Assembly: GCA_963674665.2 (NCBI GenBank)
Contig: CAXXPL010000011.1
Span: 80,567-144,566, forward strand
Origin: Desulfovibrionaceae bacterium
GTDB taxonomy: Bacteria > Desulfobacterota > Desulfovibrionia > Desulfovibrionales > Desulfovibrionaceae
Direction: 5' to 3'
DNA: 64,000 nt
A model generated the notes under the pieces. That model was not told the DNA's origin. It was given only the letters and a program-made list of their open reading frames with translations, and did not search any database. Both the position numbers and the translations under genes were made by a program. Shown here one piece after another: positions 15,895 through 63,696 of the stretch (position 1 is the first letter of the stretch; every line of letters starts with the position of its first letter).

Positions 15895-16182
15895 GTGCCG
15901 CTCCTTGTCGATGTAGGTTCGGGCTTATTGAGGTTCTGCGCAAGCATAACCCAAAAGGAAACAAAAACCCAACACAAGAACGTGAACCTTCGAGGATGAC
16001 ATCGTTACCGGGACTGCGAGGTGAACACGTGGAATGCCTCCACATCCCGGCAAGACTGTATTGCCTGTGTGGCGGCCGGCCGGTCAAGGCCTTTCAGGAG
16101 GGAAAACCAGACCATGGCGGCGGGTTCGAATTGCATTGGCAACGCAAGACACACGGCAGGGATGAAATCGGTCGGAAAAGGG

Positions 16183-16557
16183 TTACTCCCCCATATACTG
16201 CAAGGTGACGGACTCGGGGAGAAGTTTCATGACCTTGAACGAATGCCCCTGAAGGGAGAAAAGTGTATCCGCCCCCTCTCCCTGAAAGGGGATGAACAGG
16301 TTCATGGCGCCTTGCTGCCTGGCCACTCCGATGCTGAAACTTCCACTGGCGGGGATGCCCGCATAGTAGAGGCAAAGGGGCTTGCAGTTCCATTTTTTAT
16401 TCTTGAGACAGAACTCGTCTCCGAGCTTGATGGTGTGCTCGCTGCCCACGAACTCGTCGTAGCAGCCGGCAAGGGCGGAAGACGTGAAAAACCCCGCGCA
16501 AAGGAGACAGAGCAGACATACGACCGGTGGAAGAGAAGCAAACAAAGCTGTTTTCAT
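16183..16557 (-). CDS. Small Cys-containing secreted/lipoprotein-like hypothetical protein
   Basis: 124 aa. Signal peptide MKTALFASLPPVVCLLCLLCAGFFTSSALAGC with a lipobox-like LAGC. No recognised domain. Confidence 0.45.
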   Translation of the reverse strand: MKTALFASLPPVVCLLCLLCAGFFTSSALAGCYDEFVGSEHTIKLGDEFCLKNKKWNCKPLCLYYAGIPASGSFSIGVARQQGAMNLFIPFQGEGADTLFSLQGHSFKVMKLLPESVTLQYMGE

Positions 16558-16565
16558 GGCAAGAT

Positions 16566-16940
16566 TCAGTTCCCGGAGTTGTCCAAAAGGCGTTGCAATT
16601 CGCTAACGGTGCAGTCCAGTTCCTGTTCGAATTTGATACCCCATTCGCGTCCTTCCATCCAGCGAATTTCAGAGCGTATGGGGGCTTCCGGAGCGGTTAT
16701 TTCCGCAAGGGATTGCAACTGCAAGAGGATTTCCACGTACTTGCCGGGAACAAGGGGGGCATTGGCGTTCTGGAGTTGCAGACGGGCTCCTGCGGGGGTG
16801 ACGTCTATGAGTCTTGCCGTTCTGCGCGATCCGTTGAGCAGAATGTCGCAGAAGTGATTGTAGCCGTAAGCCTTGAGTGAAATACGCACGTACTTGCGGC
16901 GGTCGTCTCCCATGGCCTGGATATTGTTTTGTATGGACAT
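16566..16940 (-). CDS. PilZ domain protein (c-di-GMP binding)
   Basis: 124 aa. RRKYVR (RxxxR-type) is followed by DVTPAGARLQL (D/NxSxxG-type). GGAG lies upstream of the ATG. Confidence 0.7.
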   Translation of the reverse strand: MSIQNNIQAMGDDRRKYVRISLKAYGYNHFCDILLNGSRRTARLIDVTPAGARLQLQNANAPLVPGKYVEILLQLQSLAEITAPEAPIRSEIRWMEGREWGIKFEQELDCTVSELQRLLDNSGN

Positions 16941-17138
16941 GAAGGAGGCTCCTTAAGAAAAAGGGAAAAGAGTCAATTTGGACAATTATAGCATGGAGTC
17001 GATGTCGCGTCCATTGATGATCGATAAAAAACGTGAAGCAATGCTAAGGTGACACTGCCAAAGGCGTGCAGTGTAAATCAATACTTAACTTATTCGCGCT
17101 TCCTTAAATTCCATAGAAAATATTATTCAGTCTATGCG

Positions 17139-17472
17139 TTACCGCCCTTGCATGGCGTCGATAACCGTTTCTATGGCATCCAGGATACGTCTCTTGGGGT
17201 TGTCCTTGCAAATGGATCCAACGACTTCCCCCAGCCCTTCCCATCGATCCGGAGTAAAGGTGTCGATATTGCTCTTCCCGACGTAGTATTCGTCGACCCA
17301 TACCAGGATGATGCCCACCACGGCCTTGTCCCTTGCCACGAGTTCGCCGCAGGTGAGTTCGCGGATGTCCACGGTGAGGGGAAGGGGAGCCGCCGGAGAG
17401 GGAATCCGCCATGGCCGGGGCAACGAAAAGGAGCACGAGAGCGATCTTGACGTACTGAGGGATTGTTCGCAT
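17139..17472 (-). pseudogene. HdeA/HdeB-like periplasmic protein, reading frame broken just after the signal peptide
   Basis: ATG at 17472 gives signal peptide MRTIPQYVKIALVLLFVAPAMADSLSGG, then junk. A different frame (shift within CCCCTTCCCCTC, about 17385-17400) gives LPLTVDIRELTCGELVARDKAVVGIILVWVDEYYVGKSNIDTFTPDRWEGLGEVVGSICKDNPKRRILDAIETVIDAMQGR ending at 17139. Confidence 0.5.
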
Positions 17473-18413
17473 GGGATACCCCCGGTGGATGCTTTAAAAA
17501 TGTTTCGGCGCAAGGTTCATGTGTTGAAAAAAGTGCCATAGTGTATCCTGAAACAAAGATGGTCGCAATGAGTTGTGGAGGAGGGCATGCTCTCATGCCA
17601 TTGGCGTAAGGGATGGTGTTTTGAAATTGAAGTTGATGTTGTGCAAAATGCTGACAAGTTGCGCACCAATGATTTGGTAATGGTATATGTCCAGAGGACG
17701 CTGAAAAGAATATAGATCTGTAACTGGCTGATGATGGTAATGGATCTGGATGAATCTTTGTGAGGCGGCAACTACGAATATCAGGAAAAGAAGTCCCGAA
17801 ATGGAGTGGAAATACTTGAATTGCTGCTGAACCAGTGGACAGAAAGCAGCTTATCTGGGATAATAAATATTAAAAAGAACTGTGTTGACAAGGGGATCAA
17901 CCGCCAGCCGTGTTGCCTGCGGCAGCAATGACAGACACGCGGGAGAATGAAATGACGGTAACGGGATCAGTGGTCGCAAGTTTCGTGACACGTAACGATG
18001 ACATGCCCGGAACAATTCGAAACATTCGTGTTGCCATCGGTGATCAGGGGCGGGAGGGGGTCACGTCCAAAACAGTTCGCCTCGAGGCCTGTGGAACTCT
18101 TTTACTGCAGGGGTTTCAAATCCTCGGGAAACGGAGGCGGGGCCGACTTGACCTGCGGAGTGCGGGAATGAACTCCTGACATCGTTTCCCCGGAGATGAC
18201 AGCATTGTATTTCTCAGGGTCCTTGGGCGGTACTGCCGCGCCACTATTCGTTCCAACTTCCCGCCCCACAGGAAGTAGTCTCTTCGATGCAAAATTGACA
18301 AAAGCGTTTTCTTGACAAGGCCGTTACAAGGGGGCATCCAATCGGGGTTTTCTTTTGCCATTGGGGGAGGCCCGATCGTTGACCTTGGCCATTCACTTTA
18401 CCTAGGAGGAAGC

Positions 18414-27344: not shown

Positions 27345-27420
27345 GGGCGGGTAGCTCAGCTGGGAGAGCATCGGCCTTACAAGCCGAGGGTCACAGGTTC
27401 GAGCCCTGTTCCGCCCACCA
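27345..27420 (+). tRNA. tRNA-Val (anticodon TAC)
   Basis: Hand-folded cloverleaf. Acceptor is GGGCGGG/TCCGCCC, D arm GCTC-AGCTGGGA-GAGC, anticodon arm TCGGC-CTTACAA-GCCGA and T arm ACAGG-TTCGAGC-CCTGT. CCA is encoded. Confidence 0.9.
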
Positions 27421-27481
27421 CCTTCAGGCAAATGCCTGTAAATTTGATTCAGGCCAGGATTCATGCCTGGATACCATATGC

Positions 27482-27558
<77 letters not shown>

Positions 27559-27567
27559 CAAAAGAAA

Positions 27568-27600
27568 GGGGTCGCATCGCAAGATGTGACCCCAATTTCT
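27568..27600 (+). terminator. Hairpin after tRNA-Asp (weak terminator)
   Basis: GGGGTCGCAT-cgcaag-ATGTGACCCC (one mismatch) followed by AATTTCTT. Confidence 0.45.
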
Positions 27601-27648
27601 TAATTACATCACGCTAGTAAGCCACGCACAGGGCTTTACTATACCTAA

Positions 27649-27678
27649 GGGCTGGGAGAGTACTCCTGGCCCTTTTTT
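27649..27678 (+). terminator. Rho-independent terminator
   Basis: 10-bp stem GGGCTGGGAG / CTCCTGGCCC (two G-U pairs), 4-nt loop, then TTTTTT. Confidence 0.65.
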
Positions 27679-28438
27679 CGTTGGGCACAAAACGCGGACA
27701 CAAAGAACATATGGAGTTGGTACTTCAGGTAGTTATGACCGGAAATTTGGTGTTGCAGTATGAAATCATTGAAGCTATTGTTTAAAAAATACTATTGGAG
27801 ACTACTGAATGCATTTCTTGTTAGGTATAATTCCTGGAGTTGTAGCTTGCTAGCTTTTATACAGCGAAAGTACATATGTATTCTACTTTGCTGTTCTCGC
27901 ATCCATTTTGTACATCATATCTTCAATGACTGTCATTATAGACGCTATTCGTATTGTTAGCGAAAGAACAAATATGGAAAAATTACTCAAGAGCTTCAAC
28001 GGTGTTGATCTAGCATCATCAGTCAGTATAAGTGCACTGATTGCCAATTGTACAATGCCGACGTAGACAACGAACAACGGGTCAGATCGACATCTGAAAA
28101 ACTTGTTTCGCCCCCTAGCTTGCCAAAGGCCGACGAAATAATGAGGAGCAGAAGCACGGATTCCCATCTGTGCCAGGCACCATGAGCAAGAGGCTAGATA
28201 AATAGTAGCATCTGACTTCTCGCATAACAAAGTCGTTGACCCCAGAGCAGGCCATATCTGGGGACTACTTGTATGGGCCTGTACAAATTTAGTATAATTG
28301 GTTAATTAGTATGACCATTCAGGTTAAAATAGACCGAAGGAATTGTGACGTAATGCACCCTAACGACACATGAAAATAAATTTACTATGACTGCCTTGCT
28401 AATTTCTCCTATTGCTCTCTCATGAGAATATCTTCCCT

Positions 28439-29668
28439 ATGACAACTTATCAGATAACTACAAACGCAGATTGGGGAGACTATGTAAAACCTAAATTCTT
28501 GCGTTATACACCAATACACCGCTGGCTCGTCTTCCCGCATAGCTTCACGCCCGAATTAGTTGATGACCTCATTAATAAATGGGGATTAAATAGTTCTGAC
28601 AAAATCCTAGACCCATTTGTTGGAGCTGGAACGACCCTGATTGCTGCACAAAAAGCGGGAATCCCCTCTCAAGGCTATGATCTTTCGCCGTTCGCCGTAT
28701 TGGCCTCAAACGTAAAAACAGCAAACTATATAGCAAATGACTTGTGTAAGGATTGGGATACGATCAAAAGGCGCTTAAGCACTCCTTTTAAAGGCCCCCT
28801 AAAAAAAGAATACCCTGATTTAATCCGCAAAGCTTTTGCACCCAACATTCTACTTGCCCTTGAAGAGACACGGTCTCAAATCATCCAACGAACCTCAAAT
28901 AATCAGTCTAGGGCATTCTTTTTACTAGCCCTACTTGCTATCATTCCTGAAATAAGCAGGGCGGAGGCAACTGGCGGTTGGCTGAAATGGGTGGAAAAAG
29001 AACCATCCATAGATGACCTTAAAACTGCGTTCACTGACCAAGTTATGCTTATGCTTAATGACGTTCAAACTCTAAATGACAAGGAACTGGCTAAGGCGAG
29101 CTCTCAGATTACGGACGCGAGGTACCTGCCTGAAACTGACCCAACTTACTCTGCTATTATAACATCTCCACCGTATCCTAATAGGCATGACTACACACGT
29201 GTGTTCGGGGTGGAATTGATGTTTGAGTTTTTAGACTGGGGCCAAACCCGATCATTAAGATATCAAAGCATCCATTCTCATCCAGAGGCAAAGCCTATGC
29301 GCCCAGAGGTACAGGGCTATGTTCCTCCAATGGGATTACAAAAAAGTCTTGAAAAAATCGAAAAGTCGGCTCCAAAACGTATCGTCAAAATGCTAAAAGG
29401 CTATTTTCTAGATTTATTTTGCTGCTTTAAAGAAATGAACAGAGTAGCACTAAACGACGCAAAGATTGCGGTCGTACTTGGAAATGCTCAGTATTATGGT
29501 GAGCCTTTTCATGTAGACGAATATGCTGCCGAAATAGGCGAACAAGTAGGATTGGTGTGCCAAAAAATCGTAACTGCCCGAATTAGAGGAAACAGTGCTC
29601 AGCAAATGAAAAAATACGGTCGCAATCCATCTCGTGAAAGTGTGGTTATTTTTAACAATAAAAGCTGA
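28439..29668 (+). CDS. DNA methyltransferase (N6-adenine or N4-cytosine; SPPY type) with motif I preceding motif IV
   Basis: AdoMet motif I is LDPFVGAGTTLIAAQKAGIPSQGYDLSPFA near the N-terminus. Catalytic motif IV is IITSPPYPNRHDY about 185 aa later. The ATG at 28439 is preferred over the TTG at 28412. Confidence 0.8.
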   Translation: MTTYQITTNADWGDYVKPKFLRYTPIHRWLVFPHSFTPELVDDLINKWGLNSSDKILDPFVGAGTTLIAAQKAGIPSQGYDLSPFAVLASNVKTANYIANDLCKDWDTIKRRLSTPFKGPLKKEYPDLIRKAFAPNILLALEETRSQIIQRTSNNQSRAFFLLALLAIIPEISRAEATGGWLKWVEKEPSIDDLKTAFTDQVMLMLNDVQTLNDKELAKASSQITDARYLPETDPTYSAIITSPPYPNRHDYTRVFGVELMFEFLDWGQTRSLRYQSIHSHPEAKPMRPEVQGYVPPMGLQKSLEKIEKSAPKRIVKMLKGYFLDLFCCFKEMNRVALNDAKIAVVLGNAQYYGEPFHVDEYAAEIGEQVGLVCQKIVTARIRGNSAQQMKKYGRNPSRESVVIFNNKS

Positions 29669-29678
29669 AAAAAAAATT

Positions 29679-30065
29679 TTAAAGAGAAACTATCTTCTTA
29701 GAAATCATAATTGCCATATCAATAGCTCGTTTATCATAACTTAGCTTAGCGACCTCAGCTAGTTGCACTGTTATGTCAAATACAACAGAATCATTTTTTA
29801 AAGCGTGCTCATCTGCCGATGAAACGAACGCCCAAAAATTTTTCGCAAACTCAAACAACTCATCTGGCGTATTGTTTGACTTTGAAATCTCAAGAGCATC
29901 CTTAAGGTTATCATTATTTGCGTACGTATTGAGCAGATCATCTGAATTCCCTTGCAAGTACTGTCTCAGCTGAGACCATTTTGCATGAGTGTCAGGCGCA
30001 GATACGTTCACATTATGGGCCATAAACTTCCCCACAAAACCAGTACGAGTTTTAAGTTGTGCCAT
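29679..30065 (-). CDS. Hypothetical small protein (gene 5 of the island operon)
   Basis: A strong AGGAGG RBS lies 6 nt upstream of the ATG at 30065 (MAQLKTRTGFVGKF). The ATG sits inside the last codons of the upstream gene. The protein has 128 aa and no recognisable motif. Confidence 0.55.
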   Translation of the reverse strand: MAQLKTRTGFVGKFMAHNVNVSAPDTHAKWSQLRQYLQGNSDDLLNTYANNDNLKDALEISKSNNTPDELFEFAKNFWAFVSSADEHALKNDSVVFDITVQLAEVAKLSYDKRAIDMAIMISKKIVSL

Positions 30066-30840
30066 CTTTATCCTCCTGCGGGCGTTTAGCCTGCATCTTC
30101 GCAATAATCTCTTCTAATGATTGAATGTCATCCTTCAAACTTGGCGCGTCCTTCATTTCTTCCGCGATTTGAGAAAGCAACTGTACCCCAATAACCTTTG
30201 CGAGGTCCATACCGATTTCCACCTTATGTGCCCCAGGCTGAAGGCTGCTCTCTTTGTATCGTTTATAGGACTCTCCAAGAGCATTGCCCTTTTCTCCATT
30301 AACATCAATAGCTTGTAATACGCATTTCCTTGCAAACTCCCAAACATTACTATCATCAACGTTATTCATGATCTCGCTGACTAAAGGCCTAAGTTTAGTA
30401 TTTCGTATTATACCATACTGATGGTAAAGAACCGCATGAATCTTTTGGAAAAGGATCTGCAAAACTATTGATACTTTTTTATCAGCCTCACTCTGATCCG
30501 GACGATAGGAAGTTATGAGTGCAAAACCTACGCCTCCAATTAGGACTGCTAATAGATATGGGTGATCGCTAATTGAAAGTGACAAAATGTGTATTTCAAA
30601 AGTTTCTAAAACCTTGAAGGCTATGACAGCCAATGTGCCGTTGTAAACAGCGTACATATGGCAGGGCCACGACCTAAGAACTACCATCGGCTTGTCGGTA
30701 AAATCATTTATAAATAAGACTAAGCCGACAAGGCCTCCAATAAAAAAGGCAAGGCAGGGAGCAAGGAATGCTTGTACCATAGGGGCGTATACAAATGCCT
30801 GAGTGTCGGCCAAGACAGATGTAAACCAAGTGTTCATCAT
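30052..30840 (-). CDS. Hypothetical membrane protein (three or more N-terminal TM helices + soluble C-terminal domain; gene 4 of the island operon)
   Basis: 262 aa. TM segments are FLAPCLAFFIGGLVGLVLFI, MYAVYNGTLAVIAFKVL and YLLAVLIGGVGFALITSY. A GAGGG RBS is present. Confidence 0.6.
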   Translation of the reverse strand: MMNTWFTSVLADTQAFVYAPMVQAFLAPCLAFFIGGLVGLVLFINDFTDKPMVVLRSWPCHMYAVYNGTLAVIAFKVLETFEIHILSLSISDHPYLLAVLIGGVGFALITSYRPDQSEADKKVSIVLQILFQKIHAVLYHQYGIIRNTKLRPLVSEIMNNVDDSNVWEFARKCVLQAIDVNGEKGNALGESYKRYKESSLQPGAHKVEIGMDLAKVIGVQLLSQIAEEMKDAPSLKDDIQSLEEIIAKMQAKRPQEDKDGTT

Positions 30841-30880
30841 ACCCTCAAATTAGTTTGCTGCTTTCATTATACTAATCATT

Positions 30881-33136
30881 CTACTTTTGTGTTAATCGTT
30901 CAACTTCATAATCATTGCCTACTAAAGATGTAGAAAAAATTAATCGCCCTTTATACTTAGCATTTAACTTTTTATTGTAGGAAGTATCAGGCTCATTGCA
31001 GCGGAAAAAGCGTAGTTGGCCAATTCGGTAACCAGGGAAAAGTCGAATAGGATTTGGACCTGCATTATATATCTCAAAAGTTATCGCTCCATGGAATCCA
31101 GGATCTATTAAATTTGCAGTCATATGGACCTGCACTCCCAATCTGGCAAAACTACTTCGTCCTTCTATTTGTGCTGCAACACTGTTTGGGAACCCAAAAT
31201 ACTCCATCGTATGGGCCAACACGAACTGACCAGGCGCTAAAACAATTCCTGTCTTAAAATCAAGGTCTACAATAGACGAATTAGTCAAAACATTTTGAAC
31301 AGATTCTGGATTCGTAAAATCAATCACACCACTTTGGTTTGGTTGGTAAGTTTGAAAAGTCGGTCCAAGTCGAATATCAAGAGAAGCTGAACCAAGTTGG
31401 GTCTTCAAATCAATCAACGGAATTACTTTTAGCTCATCATCTTCGAGTAGTTTCTTAATTTCCCTATCCACAAGAACAGCAGGGATATATATAGAATTTT
31501 CTTCACATTTTTCTGTGTTACTTCGTACTGGCTCCTGGCTTTCTATATCGGTATTCTTGGGCTTAAGCAAAGAAACCCATTCGCTTATTTGAAGAGATCG
31601 AAGAACAGCTTGATTAAACCTTTCAAAATATGGAGCTATATTTTCTTCAAACACTTTCCATTGCTCTTTATCCTGACTATTATGCAGTACACCAATGTGG
31701 CTAAAAAACTCATTCATCACTTCATCGCACAACGCCGTATCATGAGAAACCCAGGCAGCCAGCATTATGTCATATATAGATGTTTCTACCTCTTTAGATA
31801 TATTTTCTTCTAATGAAATAGACGGAATAGGGTATCCCCCATTCAACCTGTCCACAAGCCGTTTTAAAATCTTATTGTCAAATAACTGAGCAGCCGCTTT
31901 TAGCTTTTTCACATGCTGTTTTACATTCTCCGTGCCTTTGTCATCCATCTTGAAATGATCATTAAAGAAGGATGCAAACCACATTGCTATTTCGTATGCA
32001 TCATCAAGCACCTTCTCGTTTTCATGCTTAAGCAAGTCTGACAAGGAAAAGTTCAATGGAGATACATCGTATTCAAGTGGGTAATCAAACTGCCATTGGT
32101 GATTTTCAAATATATGTTCGAGAACTAATAGACGCAAATAAAATGAAGGGTGCGTAGATGTTCCGATGTCCCGATGCCAATTTCTTTGAAGAACGAACGC
32201 GTTACGTTGAGCAAAGAGTATCGCTGGACCTGTAGCAAAATAGGCATATATATCGCACCAACATTCAGTTAACCAAGAACCTAAAACATCTTTTTTATCA
32301 GTGTTCTCTTTCGCTACTTCATTAATTCTTGAGAGTTGTCTAATAAAAGCCTTATGATATTCGTTTCGATATGGATCTTTAAAAAAAGCATCTACAATAT
32401 TTTTGTGTTCTAACAATGCCCACTTCATCACCTGATGCCCAACTTCATGGGCTAACACTGGCCAAGACAGAGGGTTTTGAGTTTCTTCTCGTGGTATGCT
32501 AATATGATATGACTCGTCATTTTCCTGGGTTAGCCCTGCGTACGCATCTGAATACACATTTCGCAAAGTTGGAATTAAGACCATGTTTTCGTATTTTTTT
32601 AACGGGTGATTCTCATAGGTAACCGTTCCGCAGTCAACACCCGAATACAGCACAAACTTTGTTTCATTCGATATTTCGCTAACTTCGTTAGAATTCTCAT
32701 TTTCAGCACTCCCCTGCTTCGATTCGCCACTCTGATCTGCAATTCCCTCTCTATTGAAAATTCTCAAAAATCTATATAGCTCTATAAGGATGTCTGGTTT
32801 AGGTAAAATAACCAACTCATCTGACAACAGAATTACTGATTCGTACAAGCTTAGCAGTTCAGTATAGAGCTTTTTTTTCTCAGAATCATCAACACACGAC
32901 TCGTATGAAGACAGCGAATAAATGAGCGCGCTAAAGATCTCCCGCAAACTCCTAATAAAATGTTTATTTTTATTTTTATGGCGGGAGTTTATATTTTTAT
33001 GCCATGTGGAGGCTGTAGACTGAAGCTGGTCAAAAAGGACCGAAATGCGTTCAAGTATTACAAATACCAGATTATAAAGAAAAGGATCATTCTTTAACAA
33101 ATGAATTCGGTTAAAAGTCATAGTCGCCACCTTCAA
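30881..33136 (-). CDS. Fusion protein: N-terminal HExxH metallopeptidase-like region + C-terminal complete dCTP deaminase (Dcd) domain (gene 3 of the island operon)
   Basis: HEVGH is encoded at 32435-32449. Residues about 553-735 parallel E. coli Dcd along its whole length. DREIKKLLEDDELKVIP matches DRDIEAWLDEGRLSINP, and SLDIRLG matches VDVRLG. GRSSFARLGVQVHMTANLIDPGFHGAITFEIYN matches [33 protein letters not shown], and the catalytic Glu is retained. The probable ATG start is at 33121; the track start at 33136 is TTG. Confidence 0.85.
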   Translation of the reverse strand: MKVATMTFNRIHLLKNDPFLYNLVFVILERISVLFDQLQSTASTWHKNINSRHKNKNKHFIRSLREIFSALIYSLSSYESCVDDSEKKKLYTELLSLYESVILLSDELVILPKPDILIELYRFLRIFNREGIADQSGESKQGSAENENSNEVSEISNETKFVLYSGVDCGTVTYENHPLKKYENMVLIPTLRNVYSDAYAGLTQENDESYHISIPREETQNPLSWPVLAHEVGHQVMKWALLEHKNIVDAFFKDPYRNEYHKAFIRQLSRINEVAKENTDKKDVLGSWLTECWCDIYAYFATGPAILFAQRNAFVLQRNWHRDIGTSTHPSFYLRLLVLEHIFENHQWQFDYPLEYDVSPLNFSLSDLLKHENEKVLDDAYEIAMWFASFFNDHFKMDDKGTENVKQHVKKLKAAAQLFDNKILKRLVDRLNGGYPIPSISLEENISKEVETSIYDIMLAAWVSHDTALCDEVMNEFFSHIGVLHNSQDKEQWKVFEENIAPYFERFNQAVLRSLQISEWVSLLKPKNTDIESQEPVRSNTEKCEENSIYIPAVLVDREIKKLLEDDELKVIPLIDLKTQLGSASLDIRLGPTFQTYQPNQSGVIDFTNPESVQNVLTNSSIVDLDFKTGIVLAPGQFVLAHTMEYFGFPNSVAAQIEGRSSFARLGVQVHMTANLIDPGFHGAITFEIYNAGPNPIRLFPGYRIGQLRFFRCNEPDTSYNKKLNAKYKGRLIFSTSLVGNDYEVERLTQK

Positions 33137-33491
33137 TAATTAAAGTTATTTTATATTGAATATAAAATATATTTTTTAACTCATCGATGGTTTTGACAGA
33201 ATCTATACCCAGTGCTGTTTTTTTGGTGAGGTAATTTACTAAATGATTTGGTGTAACAGTCCGATACCCATGAATAATCTTCAGTTCTAGCTCTCCTGAT
33301 TCATGTTTGACCATCCCGTTTACAACCGCTTCGAGAATGGATGCCAATGGGTACGAGAACATGCACCAACGAAGGTCAAGGGTCACCTGTTGAGGCAATT
33401 CATAACTATTAATTTCCGAGAGCAACTTATCAAGGTGTGGTCGACTAGTCGGACGACGATAGCCCATTTCTCTGAAACTTATTATCATCAC
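33111..33491 (-). CDS. Small STAS-like (DUF4325-like) protein (gene 2 of the island operon)
   Basis: 126 aa. VTLDLRWCMFSYPLASILEAVVNGMV resembles the v.lDf.gv...s.sfldE strand-helix of STAS-like domains. Its start (GTGATG context, 33486-33491) overlaps the stop of the upstream gene. Confidence 0.5.
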   Translation of the reverse strand: MMIISFREMGYRRPTSRPHLDKLLSEINSYELPQQVTLDLRWCMFSYPLASILEAVVNGMVKHESGELELKIIHGYRTVTPNHLVNYLTKKTALGIDSVKTIDELKNIFYIQYKITLIIEGGDYDF

Positions 33492-34546
33492 AACTGTTCC
33501 TCACATTCCAAAAAGTAATAAAATGGGGTTTTTCCAACAACTCTAAAACTTGATCGCCACACATCGTTGTACGAGGGAGGGTCTTGGTCGATTGGACTAA
33601 GAGAACTTAAGACAAGACGACTATACTGATCAAATACAGATATGTTAGTACCTATAGCAAGGCAATTGTTAACTATACTCGACATGCCGCAGCCGTAATT
33701 CTCCTCAGAATCGCTACCTGAAACCTCATCTGTCAAAGCGAGCTTATAACCATCTGCAAAGTTGCCTTTATTTTTTTTTGATGGATATGGAGCAAAAAAT
33801 TTTTCAGAAATATGCTGATATATACCTGGTCCTAGGTCTCCAACAAGAAGATTGATCTTTGTTTTAGTCTCTGTTTCGATAACATCCAACCCTAAAAGTC
33901 CATCAGCATTCGCATGATCTGCAATATTTTTAACAATTTCTTCTAGGACATGGGTTAGCTGATTACCCTTGTCTTGGTTACGCACAAAAACAGAATCAAA
34001 AACGGGATCAACATGATCAAAGAGCTTTTGAAGAATATCCCTTCTTCTTTCAGTGTATTGACTAAAATCAAGATGACATAGGGGCATAGAGTTAACCCTT
34101 CTTAAAAATGACGCATGAACTACTGGCTCTAAACGATTTTGGCAGTACTCATCGGCAAGCTCTTTTGAAAGACGAGTTTTTATAGCTTCAAAAAAACCTA
34201 GCTGTGAACACAACTTCATCATTTTGGGATCATCGTGCTCAACAACCCGTGTAACGAACGGTTCTTTATTGTCAGCATCTAGCTGCTTTTTCATATTTTT
34301 AATAATCGATCCTTGAAATAAACTGAGCTGTCCCCCAGTTGTTTCCTTCTCTTCCAACCTTTCGGGAAAACGAAGGTTAAACAGGTAGTGTAAGTTCAAT
34401 GCTGAAGCTGCAAGGCCGCAAGACTCAAAACCTTCGCACTGACTTAAATCCAAAATACAGGTATTTTTGATATCAGCCCAAGAATTCGCAAGAGGAGAAC
34501 AACCCATCTGTTCAGGCCACAAAGTCAACCGTGTGTCACGTGTCAT
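33488..34546 (-). CDS. GHKL-type ATPase (RsbW/SpoIIAB-like HATPase fold) with N-terminal STAS-like region (gene 1 of the island operon)
   Basis: 352 aa. N box is LEEIVKNIADHA, G1 is VGDLGPGI and G2 is YGCGMSSI. No H-box/DHp is seen. The N-terminus ILDLSQCEGFESCGLAASALNL is STAS-like. A GGAGG RBS is present. Confidence 0.65.
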   Translation of the reverse strand: MTRDTRLTLWPEQMGCSPLANSWADIKNTCILDLSQCEGFESCGLAASALNLHYLFNLRFPERLEEKETTGGQLSLFQGSIIKNMKKQLDADNKEPFVTRVVEHDDPKMMKLCSQLGFFEAIKTRLSKELADEYCQNRLEPVVHASFLRRVNSMPLCHLDFSQYTERRRDILQKLFDHVDPVFDSVFVRNQDKGNQLTHVLEEIVKNIADHANADGLLGLDVIETETKTKINLLVGDLGPGIYQHISEKFFAPYPSKKNKGNFADGYKLALTDEVSGSDSEENYGCGMSSIVNNCLAIGTNISVFDQYSRLVLSSLSPIDQDPPSYNDVWRSSFRVVGKTPFYYFLECEEQL

Positions 34547-35066
34547 TTTGGAGTCCCTCCTCTTCAGTGGACACGTTTTCTATGGTTCAACTCTATCAAT
34601 ATTAGAAATTTGTCTGTCTGTATTTTTTGTAGTTAGAGGGAAAAGAAATTACCTTTTCAGGCAGTTAAAAAAAGTTCAATTATTCCACAGGAAATCTCCT
34701 GGATCGTACCTGATCAGCCAAGTTCATACCTTACCTTGATCGTCAGAATCATCATTTCAAAATATTGCGGTATATTCATAAATATCTCTGCTTATGAGTC
34801 TGGTTGCAGGATATACTTTTAACTATTGAATGTGAAGATTTGAACCAGAAAAAAGGCCAGAACTCATGTCCTGACCCTTCATAGTGGTTTTATGGCTCCT
34901 GCCCTGCTACTTCAGCTTCAAGGTCGTCTCCAGGGCATCACGGCTTCCTTCTCTCCCAGGATATTCAAACCATCAGGCAACGGGCTTTCCCGTCTTATAC
35001 AAATCGGTTGCGATGAGGCGAGGTATCACATGACAGCTGGAGCGTTTCACACTGGGCATACAACGG

Positions 35067-35112
35067 AAAACCGCCCGTAGGGGCCGAGGAGGGACCCACC
35101 ACGGGCGGTTTT
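35067..35112. terminator. Possible bidirectional terminator between the island and dgoK
   Basis: AAAACCGCCCGT ... ACGGGCGGTTTT stem with a 22-nt loop and A/T runs on both sides. It lies about 75 nt downstream of the dgoK stop. Confidence 0.45.
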
Positions 35113-60788: not shown

Positions 60789-61572
60789 GAATTCCTCACG
60801 ATTATTTCGTTGTGTTGATGTGTCTCGGAAAAGGTCCGGACGCGTCATCAGGAGGCTTGCAGCACCTTGTGGAAGGGGTGCTCCGAGAAGAGACCGGGGC
60901 GGCATCCAGGATACGTGATTTTTTGTTGTTTCTCGTTGGCAATAAATGTCTGTAAAAAACATCGACGGAATAGTAGTGTGTCTGCGGGGTATGGAATTTT
61001 CCCCGGGTTTAAGGAGTTGATCGGTGTATTTCCTGGATTGGGATGTTTTGAGATCCTGGCAAGGGGTGCATCATCCAGTTCGGCAATTGTGAATTGATTT
61101 GCGATCCGTTTATTGATCAAGACCGGATTTGCCATGGCTTCTGCACGGCGATGATCCGTTGCATCTGAATATACAATCGTAGTTATTCAGTAGCTTGGCT
61201 CATGGATATATAGTGGTGGATCGATTCATGGCTCCGTATTAGTTCGGACAGAAACATTGGACAAAAGTGGCAAGGGATACATTTTTGTATGAGATGCTTG
61301 CAAGTGAATTTTATGTAAAGTTGATTTCGAAGGTAACAAAATATCAGTATTGTATAGTCGATTTAAAAAATCAGCGCTAATTAATTGTGTAGATTAATTG
61401 AGTTCACATCGGTGTCGACAATAATTGTGGCATTTTTCGCGGTTATGGAGTAATATTTAAGACAAAGTGTGAGGACATTAAAACTTCAAGAGTTGAACCG
61501 ACAGCGATCATGTGCGGTTTGCAGGGATAATCTCGAAAGGAATATCACATTTTTTATGTAGAGGGGGAGGAT

Positions 61573-63696
61573 GTGAATATCGATGCCGTTGCCCAACACA
61601 AGGAAGCCCTGCTGCGTTCAATGCCGGACGTGGTGAATTATATCTCCACATTTCGCTCAATCAATAAGCGTTGGGACGGCGCCATAACCGCCGGCATGAT
61701 CGAGACCGGCCGCATGGAGGACGAGGCCTCCCGGCTCTTCGCCCCGCTCATTCAGGACATGGGCTCCACCAAGAACCGGTACAGCGACATACAGAACCGG
61801 CTGGTGGACGCCATCATGTTCGAGATGGCCAAGAAGGTCATCTTCGAGATCAAGGACGCAGCCAAATTCGCCATAAACATCCTCAAGCGCAATCTCTTCG
61901 AACGTACCGCCGATGTGGGCTATCTGGCCACTGACGCGGAGATCGTCAATCTGCTCCGGATGGTTGTCGACGGTCGGGATGAGCGCGATTTGGCCGATCA
62001 GGGCAAAGTCATCCGCCAACGCCTGGCCGAATATCAGTACGAATACACCGTGTATGACGAAATCCTCGTCATGGACAGGGATGGTTACGTGCGGGCCAAC
62101 CTGTGCCGGGACAATCACCTGAAGGTATCGCATGATCCCTGCCTGGAGCGGGCGCAGGCGGTGAATCTGCGCGGCAACCAGGACGAGGACAAGTACATCG
62201 AGATCATGCGGGAGACTGATCTGCACCACCGCCAGGGCAAAACTCTCGCCTATGCGCAAAAAATCGAGGATCCGGAGACCCGGCGATCCCTGGGAACCCT
62301 GTGCCTGTGCTTCAACTTCGAACAGGAGATGGAGAGCATTTTCAGCGACCTGCACCAGGGAAACCAGCACCTGACGGTCGCAATCCTGGATGCGGAGGGT
62401 GGTGTGCTGAGTTCCAACAATCCCGAAGTCCTGCCCGCAAGGGCAAAAGTGAGCGCGGATCTGGGCGCAGATTTCAGGGTTCTCAGCATCAATAACAGGC
62501 AATACCTGGCCAACATAGCGGCCACGGACGGGTATCAGGGATTTTACGGCCTCACATGGTACGGCCTTGCAATGGTGGAGGTGACCTCCGCCTTCAGCCA
62601 GACCGGTCTGCGGGACACCACTGATGGGGATCTGATGGAAAAACTGCAGAACTTTTCCCAGGAACTCACCGGCATAAAGGACGAGTCGGACGGGCTGTTG
62701 GCGGACATGAAGCTCGACAGCATCAACGGGCAGGTCAAGGCCGCCAAGTACGAGGCCAACGGGTTTGTGGAGGTGCTGCGCTTCGTGGATTTCATCGGCG
62801 ACGAGATCGACGGGCTCTTGTCCCAGGCCATCAGAAACCTCCAGAAGACCATTGTCACGTCCCTGTTCAACGATCTGCAGTTCCGCGCCTTCCAGGGCAA
62901 CAACATCGCGGACAGAAATCTCTACGAGCGCGCCAACGACGTCTGCTGGTGGGCGCTCACCCCAATGTTCCGCAGGCTGCTCACCAAACATGCGGATGAG
63001 GGACTCACCGTCGAGGAGTGTCAAAGCCTCCGGGACAACCTGCAGTATATCAACGACCTCTACACACCCTATCTGCGCCTCGTACTGGCGGACGCCCGGG
63101 GGACCGTGGTGGCTCTGTCCGACCCCCCGAGCGAGCTCAATGAGCGTTTTCTCATGGAGGGCATGCCCCAGGGGCAGGAGTTCGTGGGAACAAGGCTGGA
63201 TAAGGAACTGGTGGCCAAGGCCATGACCCTGCCTTCCAGCAAGGACTACTGCGTGTCCGGGTTCGTGGCCACCGACCTTTATGGGGGGCGCCCCACCTAT
63301 GTGTACAGTACCGCTGTGAGGAGCCCGGAGAACATGGACCGTACAGTTGGAGTGGTGCAGATCGTGTTCGACGCAGAGCCGCAGTTCAAGGATATGCTCA
63401 ACGATGTTCTGCCGCGCGACGAGAACAAGCAGGTTGTGGAGGGGAGCCTGGGATTTTTCGTGGACAGGGGCGGCAAGATCATCGCGTCGACCTCGCAGGA
63501 GTTTGCGCCCGGTGATATCCTTCCATTGCCGAAATCCCTGTATCTCGGCGAAAAGGGAGCGCGCAACTCATCGGTGGTGGAGTTGAAGGGCCGTTCCTAC
63601 ACCGTGGGGCGGCAGGTGTCCGAAGGGTACCGGGAGTACAAGCGCAGTGACGGCTACGTCAACGACGTGATCTGTCTGATTATGATCCCCATCTAG
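61573..63696 (+). CDS. Cytoplasmic protein built from two tandem Cache/PAS-like double-sensor modules, no output domain
   Basis: 707 aa (GTG start with GGGGGAGG RBS) and no TM or signal peptide. Internal duplication is visible by eye. RNLFERTADVGYLATD pairs with RNLYERANDVCWWALTP. YEYTVYDEILVMDRDGYVRANL pairs with DLYTPYLRLVLADARGTVVALS. LGTLCLCFNFEQEMESIFSDL pairs with TVGVVQIVFDAEPQFKDMLNDV. Confidence 0.65.
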   Translation: MNIDAVAQHKEALLRSMPDVVNYISTFRSINKRWDGAITAGMIETGRMEDEASRLFAPLIQDMGSTKNRYSDIQNRLVDAIMFEMAKKVIFEIKDAAKFAINILKRNLFERTADVGYLATDAEIVNLLRMVVDGRDERDLADQGKVIRQRLAEYQYEYTVYDEILVMDRDGYVRANLCRDNHLKVSHDPCLERAQAVNLRGNQDEDKYIEIMRETDLHHRQGKTLAYAQKIEDPETRRSLGTLCLCFNFEQEMESIFSDLHQGNQHLTVAILDAEGGVLSSNNPEVLPARAKVSADLGADFRVLSINNRQYLANIAATDGYQGFYGLTWYGLAMVEVTSAFSQTGLRDTTDGDLMEKLQNFSQELTGIKDESDGLLADMKLDSINGQVKAAKYEANGFVEVLRFVDFIGDEIDGLLSQAIRNLQKTIVTSLFNDLQFRAFQGNNIADRNLYERANDVCWWALTPMFRRLLTKHADEGLTVEECQSLRDNLQYINDLYTPYLRLVLADARGTVVALSDPPSELNERFLMEGMPQGQEFVGTRLDKELVAKAMTLPSSKDYCVSGFVATDLYGGRPTYVYSTAVRSPENMDRTVGVVQIVFDAEPQFKDMLNDVLPRDENKQVVEGSLGFFVDRGGKIIASTSQEFAPGDILPLPKSLYLGEKGARNSSVVELKGRSYTVGRQVSEGYREYKRSDGYVNDVICLIMIPI

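Follow-up and report, generated by a model that had tools for sequence, protein, structure and literature searches.

Deamination of dCTP is a proven chemistry of defence. The defensive dCTP deaminase described by Tal and colleagues in 2022 is said to join a zinc-dependent cytidine-deaminase fold, with C370 and C401 as ligands, to a kinase domain, and both this enzyme and AvcD are reportedly single genes with an N-terminal kinase or P-loop domain. A different organisation is found in VapKSC, an experimentally validated anti-phage system made of a kinase, a STAS antitoxin and a toxin, to which CapK/CapS is related (Chambers et al., EMBO J 2026, PMC13373217). PUA-Cal-HAD relies on the Dam methylase of the host, on a PUA-like sensor and on phosphatases, and in it Dam-derived m6-dAMP triggers dNTP depletion (bioRxiv 10.64898/2026.01.15.699771).

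Here we analysed a 64,000-nucleotide stretch of Desulfovibrionaceae DNA (the window) that carries what looks like an immune system not described before. The reading that we favour, and to which we give about an even chance, is that six genes form a mobile immune cassette that is switched by a kinase, linked to a methylase and acts by depleting dCTP.

A six-gene cassette in an AT-rich tRNA-locus island

Direct reading of the sequence located five packed ORFs, g1 to g5, on the minus strand, with the coordinates and junctions that an earlier note on this DNA had given for them (Table 1). The sequence GAGGAGGG precedes g1. The g1 stop and the g2 start lie in the context TTGTGATGATA, in which the g2 start overlaps the g1 stop (GTGATG at 33486-33491), and the end of g2 overlaps g3 by 11 nt when counted from the ATG at 33121, or by 26 nt with the TTG at 33136 as start. 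The ribosome-binding site of g4, GAGGG, comes behind a 40-nt spacer. AGGAGG stands before the ATG of g5, and g4 and g5 share 14 nt. The methyltransferase gene g6 is convergent to g1-g5, and its stop is found 10 nt from that of g5. Public gene calls were concordant, with 746 aa for g3, 128 aa for g5 and 409 aa for the methylase.

Table 1. Features of the cassette and of its left boundary, in window coordinates
Feature	Coordinates	Strand	Description
g1	33488-34546	-	352 aa; STAS-like N-terminus and anti-sigma-type GHKL kinase/ATPase (VapK/CapK-like), predicted
g2	33111-33491 (feature 33111..33488)	-	125-aa small partner, placed like the STAS antitoxin VapS
g3	30881-33136 (ATG 33121; TTG 33136)	-	fusion of a HExxH domain and a predicted Dcd-type dCTP deaminase
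g3 N-terminal domain	31562..33121	-	about 520 aa, all-alpha, zincin-like HExxH...ExxxD signature, uncharacterised
g3 HExxH motif H230-E231-V-G-H234	32435..32449	-	residues numbered from the TTG at 33136
g3 E291-C-W-C-D295 (ExxxD)	32252..32266	-	candidate third zinc ligand; two conserved Cys
g3 C-terminal domain	30884..31477	-	complete Dcd-type (dUTPase-fold) dCTP deaminase, predicted
g4	30052-30840	-	262-aa membrane protein, cassette-specific
g5	29679-30104 (ATG 30065)	-	128-aa small helical protein
g6 DNA methyltransferase	28412-29668 (feature 28439..29668)	+	409 aa; motif I FVGAGT, then motif IV SPPY
SPPY of g6	29165-29176	+	motif IV
tRNA-Val and tRNA-Asp	27345..27558	+	ARAGORN; left island boundary, likely insertion site

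Within the window, the cassette forms an AT-rich island that sits beside tRNA genes, with housekeeping genes on either side. Its GC content is 0.38-0.44, compared with ~0.62 in the flanks, and the drop from 0.62 to ~0.40 occurs immediately past the tRNA-Val and tRNA-Asp genes, which are the likely site of insertion. A flanking direct repeat was sought around the island and none was found. No other defence genes lie beside the island within the window, where it stands alone. The cassette is horizontally acquired and mobile.

Homologous loci revealed 19 complete cassettes, including that of the window, in which g1-g5 and the methylase occur together. Their hosts are Desulfovibrionaceae, Bacteroidota, Desulfobacterales, Ignavibacteria and one archaeal MAG. 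The order g1-g5 is kept in about 20 independent loci whose proteins share just 11-66% identity, a recurrence that places the arrangement far beyond chance. The flanking genes vary between loci, with no seventh gene common to all. The methylase changes its position (convergent, downstream or upstream) and is nevertheless present in every complete cassette. These results agree with the proposal of the earlier note that the genes are one conserved, operon-like unit, and they enlarge it: g1-g5 are linked as proposed, but the system has six genes rather than five, since the methyltransferase is an integral and not an optional part.

Elsewhere, the cassette usually lies next to known anti-phage genes; co-occurrence of the genes in other genomes and such neighbours are the reverse of the findings that would have spoken against the earlier note. 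PADLOC analysis of 84 flanking proteins, some of whose matches are to generic ATPases or methylases, identified a CBASS 2TM effector, cyclase and TRIP13, SoFic, AbiLi, PsyrT, the DISARM methylase DrmMII and AriA, and immediate neighbours matched PADLOC models in 6 of 10 cases. Other copies of the cassette are carried on integrase islands or on an ICE that encodes TraG and ArdC, or lie at the margin of a Mu-like prophage. In loci L017 and L018, g3 is disrupted by two different IS elements, and in L009 g1 is fragmented, as would be expected for an effector system that is costly to its host. The cassette is rare overall: PLSDB plasmids and INPHARED phages contain no copy, and in IMG/VR the sole match was one unrelated phage Dcd (L043).

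The earlier note knew of no named defence system with these genes, and the searches agree. In PADLOC-DB 2.0, g1-g5 gave zero matches at E<=1, whether to the models of BREX, DISARM, MADS, Mza and Detocs or to others; the methylase alone matched, to generic MTase_II models. Literature searches likewise retrieved no description of the gene set.

The deaminase fusion and its partner proteins

The C-terminal domain of g3 matched PF22769 (1.6e-42) and TIGR02274 (9.4e-49), the latter with 165.5 bits against a cut-off of 92.8, and aligned with residues 3-182 of the 193 residues of E. coli Dcd (1XS1; 1.2e-29). In this alignment, GRSSFARLG, VHMTA and TFEIYN of g3 correspond to GRSSLARLG, VHVTA and VLEFYN of Dcd, so that the equivalents of E. 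coli G-R110-S111-S112-x-A-R115, H121 and E138 are kept and the triphosphate-binding residues are retained. Catalytic positions were checked against the mutant entries E138A, E138D and H121A; the equivalent of E138 is E688 (codon 31073-31075). Across the family the catalytic S, R and E do not vary, and the catalytic residues persist even in its most divergent members. Judged by sequence, the domain is a catalytically complete, predicted dCTP deaminase, as the earlier note had supposed.

In the N-terminal part of g3, the HExxH motif already pointed out in that note proved nearly invariant across the family: it is at least 90% conserved over 84 sequences that have a mean column identity of 22%, and it is retained in the most divergent members. 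In the same 84 sequences E291 and D295 reach at least 90% conservation, as do H230, E231 and H234, and by analogy with gluzincins the ExxxD may provide a zinc ligand. The complete ECWCD is invariant in two further comparisons and is present in L044 and L045. No Pfam family, peptidase family, kinase or P-loop match was obtained for this region. Its AF2 model (pLDDT 75, pTM 0.78) is all-alpha, and Foldseek returned no significant PDB or viral match, the best PDB match having an E of 0.37; ACE, ACE2 and M32 carboxypeptidase appeared as weak matches at E 1-2 with TM ~0.1. Because the HExxH domain lacks a significant structural relative, peptidase activity of g3 is a motif-level guess. When the N-terminal domain was searched for exhaustively, its relatives fell into 87 clusters (50% identity), of which all those of full length are fused to DCD; within the cassette, the Dcd domain is always the C-terminal part of a fusion of 700-770 aa.

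The earlier note had also proposed an RsbW/RsbV-like pair of GHKL and STAS proteins. The first half of this proposal held for g1. Members of its family matched HATPase_c in 14 of 15 cases (best 7e-7), and the N box (E203-x-x-K-N207-x-A-D-H211), G1 (D237-x-G-x-G241) and G2 (G285-x-G287-M) are invariant. The AF2 model of g1 (pLDDT 69.5, with low confidence at residues 1-27 and 59-93) retrieved anti-sigma F/UsfX (prob 0.99), SpoIIAB (0.98) and RsbW as top PDB matches in Foldseek, and hhalign with the g1 profile gave VapK at a probability of 88% (E 3e-6, 106 columns) and SpoIIAB at 42%. By profile and predicted structure, g1 is thus an anti-sigma-type GHKL kinase that is closest to VapK. A STAS-like motif, in contrast, could be recognised at the N-terminal end of g1 rather than in g2. 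There, LDxSxCxxxxS-x-GL aligns weakly with the DSSGL region of SpoIIAA (E 0.08), Pfam STAS/STAS_2 matches are weak (E ~0.01, in 2-3 of 15 members), and the alignment with the VapK N-terminus is also weak (E 0.21).

In all complete loci g2 directly follows g1. Its only invariant residues are M1, C43 and Y47, and the family alignment contains no invariant Ser/Thr phospho-acceptor. No Pfam or PDB sequence match was found for g2, and hhalign gave no significant alignment with SpoIIAA; with VapS it gave a weak alignment (E 0.0025, prob 12%) that is in register and sets Y47-P48 opposite S48-P49 of VapS. A STAS fold of g2 is therefore at most a tentative suggestion from its position and this weak alignment. 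The description of g4 as a membrane protein was correct, and it is the sole one of the set: it has 1-3 N-terminal hydrophobic helices followed by a soluble domain of ~150 aa, and Kyte-Doolittle analysis found hydrophobic segments in 18/18 homologues. It had no Pfam, PADLOC or PDB match, and a profile search of 5.8e9 proteins matched only 'hypothetical proteins' of 230-264 aa. Finally, g5 is kept in all loci and matched only designed helical repeat proteins in the PDB, which is explained by its composition and helicity.

The methyltransferase g6 matched PADLOC MTase_II (2.1e-59) and N6_N4_Mtase, and contains both motifs of type II R-M-type methyltransferases, FxGxG (FVGAGT) and (D/N/S)PP(Y/F) (SPPY). 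SPPY is typical of N4-cytosine methyltransferases, and from this motif alone g6 is predicted to be of that type. The methylases of the cassettes are of two unrelated architectures, a long one (motif I then IV) and a short one (IV then I), with SPPY in every copy. A cognate endonuclease of a type II R-M system was looked for in g1-g5, which gave no nuclease-family match in Pfam, NCBIfam, PHROGs or PADLOC, and no DNA-binding, nuclease or modified-base-reading domain could be recognised in them; g2, g4 or g5 may have a divergent nuclease fold.

Proposed mechanism and alternative readings

Several lines of evidence lead to the reading as a kinase-switched, dCTP-depleting immune cassette. The strict co-conservation of six genes across several phyla amid differing neighbours, and flanks that are rich in defence genes and mobile elements, argue for an immune cassette. 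The effector part of the reading follows from the complete Dcd domain and the persistence of its catalytic residues in the most divergent members, and the switch from the resemblance of g1 to anti-sigma kinases and VapK together with a g1-g2-g3 order that mirrors vapK-vapS-vapC. The fixed fusion of the N-terminal and Dcd domains, combined with the established role of dCTP deamination in defence, gives further support, as does the disruption of g3 and g1 in some loci. Several observations stand against it: g1-g5 contain no recognisable reader of the methyl mark, g2 has an invariant Tyr where the phospho-Ser of VapS aligns, the HExxH domain has no significant structural relative, the cassette is rare, the island of the window has no defence genes beside it, and some of the flanking matches are generic. 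Conservation, linkage, domain identities, motifs and context are all observed; the anti-phage function is what we infer.

Our proposal covers every activity, the sequence of steps and what g2, g4, g5, the HExxH domain and the methyl mark might do, and would run as follows. At rest, g3 would be held inactive by g2, by its own N-terminal domain or by both. Infection would activate the g1 kinase, the signal possibly being single-stranded or damaged DNA by analogy with CapK and VapK, and the kinase would alter the state of g2 and so free g3. The Dcd domains would then convert dCTP to dUTP, leaving phage replication short of dCTP and the pool flooded with dUTP, and the outcome may be an abortive or bacteriostatic protection. 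The methylase would mark host DNA, and the mark could either prevent self-firing or supply the signal.

A more specific version of the immune reading is that immunity centres on the N4 amino group of cytosine, the m4C mark being chemically coupled to the Dcd-fold deaminase as alarm ligand or as shield. We consider this unlikely. If true, a DNA methyl mark would serve immunity in a new way and a deaminase of the dUTPase fold would for the first time take part in defence, and in the m4-dC alarm form the cassette would be a self-contained methylome alarm.

It is improbable, in our view, that the cassette is an addiction module whose selected function is not phage defence but stabilisation of a mobile element by post-segregational killing, its loss unleashing a long-lived deaminase or leaving DNA unmethylated. 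The location on an ICE, in integrase islands and beside a prophage would suit such a module, as would the toxin-like effector with a small partner in the toxin-antitoxin layout of VapKSC and the IS disruption of the effector gene in two loci. However, a set of six genes with a kinase and a membrane protein among them is elaborate for addiction, and bona fide anti-phage systems are enriched next to the cassette. The two roles are also compatible, as R-M systems and VapKSC serve both.

The methyl mark might itself be the trigger, phage degradation of the chromosome releasing m4-dC nucleotides that activate the dCTP deaminase, as in PUA-Cal-HAD; we regard this as quite improbable. A nucleotide-depleting effector is here combined with a dedicated methylase and with neither a nuclease nor a recognisable DNA reader, a Dcd domain inherently binds deoxycytidine nucleotides, and depletion of dNTPs in response to methylome-derived nucleotides has a published precedent (bioRxiv 10.64898/2026.01.15.699771). 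SPPY is, moreover, found in all methylases although one clade swapped to an unrelated architecture, but the g3 tree implies a single swap, so that this retention counts as one observation and not many. Against a trigger, the cassette has no PUA/EVE-like sensor of modified bases, the m4C specificity is predicted from a single motif, and the Dcd active site could more readily be expected to be inhibited than activated by an N4-methyl analogue.

Restriction by deamination, in which a Dcd-fold enzyme guided by the N-terminal domain deaminates cytosines of unmethylated invading DNA and N4-methylation blocks the same amino group, seems highly improbable. Methylase and deaminase would both work at the exocyclic N4 of cytosine, SPPY is maintained across the two methylase architectures, and another restricting activity is needed where no nuclease is present. 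On the other hand, g3 aligns with E. coli Dcd from end to end and conserves the triphosphate-binding residues and the C-terminal stretch (to 182/193), which argues for a free-nucleotide substrate, and we know of no dUTPase-fold enzyme that acts on polymeric DNA. Equally remote is a non-immune pathway of nucleotide metabolism or DNA modification of a mobile element, adjusting dUMP/dTTP supply or making a modified base, with the methylase contributing to the modification chemistry. Dcd ordinarily does housekeeping work in thymidylate synthesis and phages encode homologues (phrog_1663; L043), but no thymidylate synthase, dUTPase, glycosylase or transferase is encoded in the cassette, which is all but missing from viral contigs and from phage genomes, includes a kinase switch and a membrane protein, and has defence genes as neighbours.

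Comparison with described systems

With housekeeping Dcd (E. coli 1XS1; TIGR02274) the effector domain of g3 shares end-to-end homology and all catalytic residues, and it scores above the NCBIfam equivalog cut-off. Whereas Dcd is a stand-alone metabolic enzyme of ~190 aa, the g3 domain ends a cassette fusion of ~750 aa that is linked to five genes in an AT-rich mobile island. The earlier note had tied g3 to the defensive dCTP deaminases, and the tie holds for chemistry but not for homology. The predicted output is the same as that of the Tal 2022 enzyme and AvcD, deamination of deoxycytidine nucleotides that depletes dCTP during infection; since the Dcd/dUTPase and cytidine-deaminase folds are unrelated, chemistry is all that is shared, and the g3 domain is in addition fused to HExxH within a six-gene methylase cassette.

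Like BREX, DISARM, MADS and Ambrosia, multi-gene defence systems that have a methylase but no classical restriction enzyme, the cassette includes a DNA methyltransferase of its own, and in Ambrosia the methylase is likewise combined with a HATPase-type signalling protein. Beyond the class of the methylase these systems share no component with the cassette, whose predicted effector targets the nucleotide pool and not DNA. Like PUA-Cal-HAD, the cassette would tie DNA methylation to dNTP depletion and abortive infection with no nuclease effector; it differs in having no PUA domain, its own SPPY methylase and a deaminase as effector.

With respect to VapKSC and CapKS, the survey of Chambers et al. 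(PMC13373217) did not recover g1, and its supplements name no deaminase or methylase. The cassette differs from these systems in its effector, a zincin-like/Dcd fusion where they have a PIN nuclease or an operon under transcriptional control, in three extra conserved genes (membrane protein, helical protein and methyltransferase) and in the absence from g2 of the invariant Ser/Thr phospho-acceptor. It resembles them in gene order, in the similar size class of g2 and VapS (125 and 116 aa) and in its defence-island contexts, and its logic of kinase, small partner and effector has a named published precedent in VapKSC/CapKS.

A conserved six-gene cassette and its genomic setting

All five minus-strand ORFs proposed in the earlier note were found in the window at the coordinates claimed, and direct reading of the sequence bore out the junctions described between them. 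The sequence GAGGAGGG precedes g1, the stop codon of g1 and the start codon of g2 share GTGATG, the ATG chosen in the public gene call gives g3 an 11-nt overlap with g2, GAGGG precedes g4, and AGGAGG precedes g5, whose overlap with g4 is 14 nt. Together with the adjoining methyltransferase gene, g6, the cassette spans ∼6.1 kb of an AT-rich island of ∼7.5 kb (GC 0.38-0.44 vs ∼0.62 outside). The island starts immediately past tRNA-Val and tRNA-Asp genes and is flanked by housekeeping genes, with GGDEF and PilZ protein genes on one side and galactonate catabolism genes on the other; a TRAP transporter gene lies further out, at 41-43 kb of the window. No att-like direct repeats were found around the island in the window, nor any integrase or integrase remnant inside it.

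Genes of the cassette in the window
Gene	Product	Coordinates	Strand	Length
g1	GHKL kinase	33488-34546	-	352 aa
g2	small partner protein	33111-33491	-	125-126 aa
g3	HExxH domain-Dcd fusion	30881-33136	-	746-751 aa
g4	membrane protein	30052-30840	-	262 aa
g5	small helical protein	29679-30104	-	128 aa (counted from ATG at 30065)
g6	DNA methyltransferase	28439-29668	+	

Two AT-rich spacers without a convincing gene border the cassette, one towards tRNA-Asp (27560-28410, ∼850 bp) and one towards dgoK (34550-35110, ∼550 bp). They contain terminator-like hairpins at 27568-27593, 27647-27674 and 34851-34880 (minus strand), and a GC-rich inverted repeat is located at 35067-35112. The window shows two more GC dips, at 16000-18000 (0.49-0.54) and 61000-62000 (0.47), which may be further acquired DNA. 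The first holds ORFs 16021-16857 and 17171-17596, without a Pfam match, and an ORF for a dCache_1-domain protein (61573-63696) starts within the second, at 61573.

Only 14 relatives of g3 came up when 5.8 billion proteins were searched by word index, and an exhaustive HMMER search of 1.84 billion representatives with its N-terminal 545 residues gave 87 clusters at 50% identity. Loci (designated L003 to L045 below) were collected from contigs encoding g3 relatives and by scanning a single genome for each GTDB species, and the cassette genes in them were recognised by a local iterative profile search. This yielded 19 cassettes, including the one in the window, 18 of which carry the full six-gene set; L017 is the sole cassette with no detected g1. 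The order g1-g2-g3-g4-g5 is invariant, with protein identities to the window genes of just 11-66%, and L045, whose g3 N-terminal domain is among the most distant from that of the window, still has the full gene set. The five packed genes described in the earlier note were confirmed, but the unit comprises six genes rather than five, since the methyltransferase is present in every cassette. Its position varies: in the clade of the window it lies downstream in convergent orientation, most Bacteroidota loci have it downstream on the same strand as g1-g5, and in L010 and L015 it lies upstream, again on the same strand. No further gene, such as a PP2C phosphatase, was conserved alongside the six, and the neighbours vary between loci. 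Chance packing of ORFs was rejected, as the gene order recurs across loci.

Several of the hosts are Bacteroidota; the others are MAGs of Desulfovibrionaceae, Desulfobacterales and Ignavibacteria, one each, and a single MAG labelled Methanobacteriota. In this last case (L015, VGTM01000090.1) the complete cassette sits on a 7.5-kb contig of the archaeal-labelled MAG, which reflects either a transfer between domains or an error of binning. Neither PLSDB plasmids nor INPHARED phages contained the cassette, and IMG/VR viral contigs yielded no cassette and only one unrelated phage Dcd. The reading of the cassette as phage-borne auxiliary genes was rejected.

We scanned 84 flanking proteins from 11 loci with PADLOC models. 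Many of them gave a match, among others to a CBASS cyclase, TRIP13 and a 2TM effector, SoFic, AbiLi, PsyrT, the DISARM methylase and AriA, and 6 of 10 immediate neighbours had a match. A CBASS 2TM effector (3.6e-111) lies directly upstream of the cassette in L012, and SoFic (2.3e-116) and AbiLi (9e-73) lie directly downstream in L010 and L013, respectively. Mobile elements are also represented: L007 is an integrase-excisionase islet and L003 an ICE segment with TraG, ArdC, RadC and SSB. In L042 (5259-13892) the cassette adjoins the Mor-GemA end of a Mu-like prophage (Mu transposase, AAA_22, DUF3164, GemA, Mor) and may be prophage cargo. The earlier note had held that its proposal of an anti-phage system would fail if the genes did not co-occur elsewhere or lay outside defence islands; with co-occurrence in 19 cassettes and defence-rich flanks both found, the proposal survives on these two points.

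The deaminase fusion protein and its downstream partners

Residues 554-751 of g3, counted from the TTG at 33136, form the complete Dcd-type dCTP deaminase domain that the earlier note had recognised (PF22769, 1.6e-42; TIGR02274, 165.5 bits vs a cut-off of 92.8). The domain aligns to residues 3-182 of E. coli Dcd (1XS1, 1.2e-29), and the equivalents of R110, S111, S112, R115, H121 and E138 are all kept, the catalytic positions having been checked against PDB entries for the mutants E138A, E138D and H121A. The catalytic motifs are also retained in the most divergent g3 members. The reading of g3 as a housekeeping dcd gene was rejected.

The N-terminal ∼520 residues have no Pfam family. Their AF2 model is all-alpha (pLDDT 75, pTM 0.78) and gave no significant Foldseek match in the PDB or BFVD; the gluzincins ACE, ACE2 and M32 surfaced at just E 1-2. 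The HExxH motif pointed out in the earlier note held up well: H230-E231-x-x-H234, together with E291-C-W-C-D295, is nearly invariant across 84 sequences with a mean identity of 22%. At the motif level, this HExxH...ExxxD arrangement is a gluzincin-like signature. Every full-length member of the N-domain family carries the Dcd fusion, and no alternative effector fused to this domain was found in the family. The HExxH domain could act as a sensor, as an autoinhibitor or as a protease on the disordered linker (residues 528-545).

Some loci carry interrupted genes. In L018 (8552-10016), g3 is split by an IS with a 158-aa ORF, whose sequence (...DNGSQFE...) is DDE-integrase-like as judged by eye, and a 103-aa ORF. 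In L017 (2022-3100), g3 is split by another IS with two ORFs that look transposase-like by eye. The two insertion points fall on either side of the end of the N-terminal domain of g3, and the effector gene seems to have been knocked out independently in the two loci. In L009 (8583-9553), a Bacteroidia MAG, g1 is present as three ORF fragments and g2-g6 are intact; gene decay or a frameshift introduced by sequencing could account for this. The g3 interruptions and the g1 fragmentation fit a costly, toxic effector.

As for the last two genes of the operon, g4 has 1-3 hydrophobic helices at its N-terminus in addition to a soluble domain and was found in this six-gene cassette only, and g5 is a small helical protein. 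Scans of both with PADLOC, Pfam, NCBIfam and PHROGs returned nothing usable, and PDB profile searches gave nothing or designed helical repeat proteins alone.

The kinase, its partner and the methylase

The earlier note had proposed that g1 and g2 form a GHKL-STAS pair. The GHKL half of this assignment is well founded: the N, G1 and G2 boxes of g1 are invariant, and its AF2 model (pLDDT 69.5) is closest to the anti-sigma kinases UsfX, SpoIIAB and RsbW (Foldseek prob 0.98-0.99, E 0.01-0.04). The N-terminus of g1 carries an LDxSxCxxxxS-x-GL motif, with weak STAS matches. The STAS half is tentative for g2, in which PADLOC, Pfam, NCBIfam, PHROGs and PDB profile searches detected no family. In hhalign comparisons, g2 was not significantly similar to the g1 N-terminus or to SpoIIAA.

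A precedent for such a pair is provided by Chambers et al. (EMBO J 2026, PMC13373217), in which CapK, an ssDNA-activated HTH-STAS-GHKL kinase, phosphorylates CapS, a STAS-wHTH repressor located upstream of immune operons, and VapK (STAS-GHKL) phosphorylates the 116-aa STAS antitoxin VapS to release the toxin VapC. VapKSC protects against phage Bas42; the supplements of that study mention neither a deaminase nor a methylase. Using VapK and VapS sequences from its supplementary AF3 model file, we found that the g1 profile aligned with VapK over 106 columns (hhalign probability 88%, E 3e-6), compared with 42% and E 2.6e-4 for SpoIIAB, and that the VapK alignment took in a segment between the G1 and G2 boxes left unaligned against SpoIIAB. 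Because of this match, g1 is credibly VapK-like. The g2 profile aligned with VapS weakly (E 0.0025, prob 12%) and in register. Besides Met1, the only invariant residues of g2 are C43 and Y47, and in this weak alignment Y47-P48 (Y47 codon, 33350-33352) stands opposite the VapS phospho-acceptor S48-P49. The g2 family alignment contains no invariant Ser or Thr; possibly the acceptor is not a Ser, or the switch works without phosphorylation. Thus g2 occupies the position of VapS, and position and this weak alignment would be the basis of a STAS identity. As a side observation, g1 matches the PHROG phrog_3364 of unknown function (4.4e-16), so GHKL proteins related to g1 occur in phage genomes; tblastn of g1 against INPHARED phages gave nothing at E≤1e-3.

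The sixth gene encodes a DNA methyltransferase (PADLOC MTase_II, 2.1e-59) that comes in two forms among the cassettes. The long form (407-423 aa) has motif I ahead of motif IV, and the short form (274-301 aa; L011-L016, L019 and L045) is circularly permuted, with motif IV ahead of motif I. On the g3 tree, the loci with the short form group in a single monophyletic clade, implying one non-orthologous replacement of the methylase. Among amino-methyltransferases, N4-cytosine enzymes typically have Ser in motif IV and N6-adenine enzymes Asp or Asn. Every copy of both forms has SPPY in this motif (29165-29176 in the window), never DPPY or NPPY, and on this one motif we predict the cassette methylases to be of the N4-cytosine type. 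If so, the cytosine N4 amino group would be central to both the methylase and the deaminase, a common focus that motivates readings in which the methyl mark is coupled to the deaminase.

Proposed function and relation to known systems

We infer the function of the cassette wholly from these comparisons, and at about even confidence we regard it as a kinase-switched, methylase-linked immune system with dCTP deamination as its output. The g1 kinase would sense infection, by analogy via ssDNA or DNA damage, and would act on g2 so that g3 is released; the Dcd domains of g3 would then convert dCTP to dUTP, and the methylase would mark self. No DNA reader or nuclease was recognised in the cassette. 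Among the alternatives, an addiction module is unlikely. Ranking next, and likewise improbable, is a trigger by methylome-derived m4-dC nucleotides, as in PUA-Cal-HAD, one of the readings that the shared focus on cytosine N4 motivates. Restriction by DNA deamination and a metabolic or modification pathway are both highly improbable.

Were the immune reading true, a newly described kinase/STAS-partner switch would reach a metabolic effector, and a methylase-linked defence would operate without a nuclease, raising the question of how a methyl mark would govern an attack on the nucleotide pool. It would also give a functional context to the HExxH...ECWCD domain, g4 and g5, families without known relatives. 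The compact cassette (∼6.1 kb) should be readily cloned and tested.

PADLOC 2.0 models matched none of g1-g5, and membership of MADS, Mza, BREX, DISARM or Detocs was rejected; the 'DCD' of BREX and YprA papers is the development and cell death domain, irrelevant to Dcd. Full-text literature searches, which surfaced the VapKSC/CapKS precedent, found no description of this gene set, and sources label its members only generically, as 'hypothetical protein' or, for one g3 homologue, 'dCTP deaminase'. The earlier note had linked g3 to the published defensive dCTP deaminase, which combines a zinc-dependent cytidine-deaminase domain (ligands C370 and C401) with a kinase domain. That enzyme shares no homology with the Dcd fold of g3, and the link is therefore one of chemistry and not of ancestry. 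A Dcd-fold defence effector would be an independent invention, and if the cassette works as proposed, immunity by dCTP depletion would have arisen twice, from enzyme folds unrelated to each other. The g1-g2-g3 order copies the kinase-STAS antitoxin-toxin order of VapKSC. All in all, dCTP depletion, the kinase/STAS switch and methylase-linked immunity each have precedents, so the cassette is not categorically new, and what it brings to these principles is three uncharacterised protein families.
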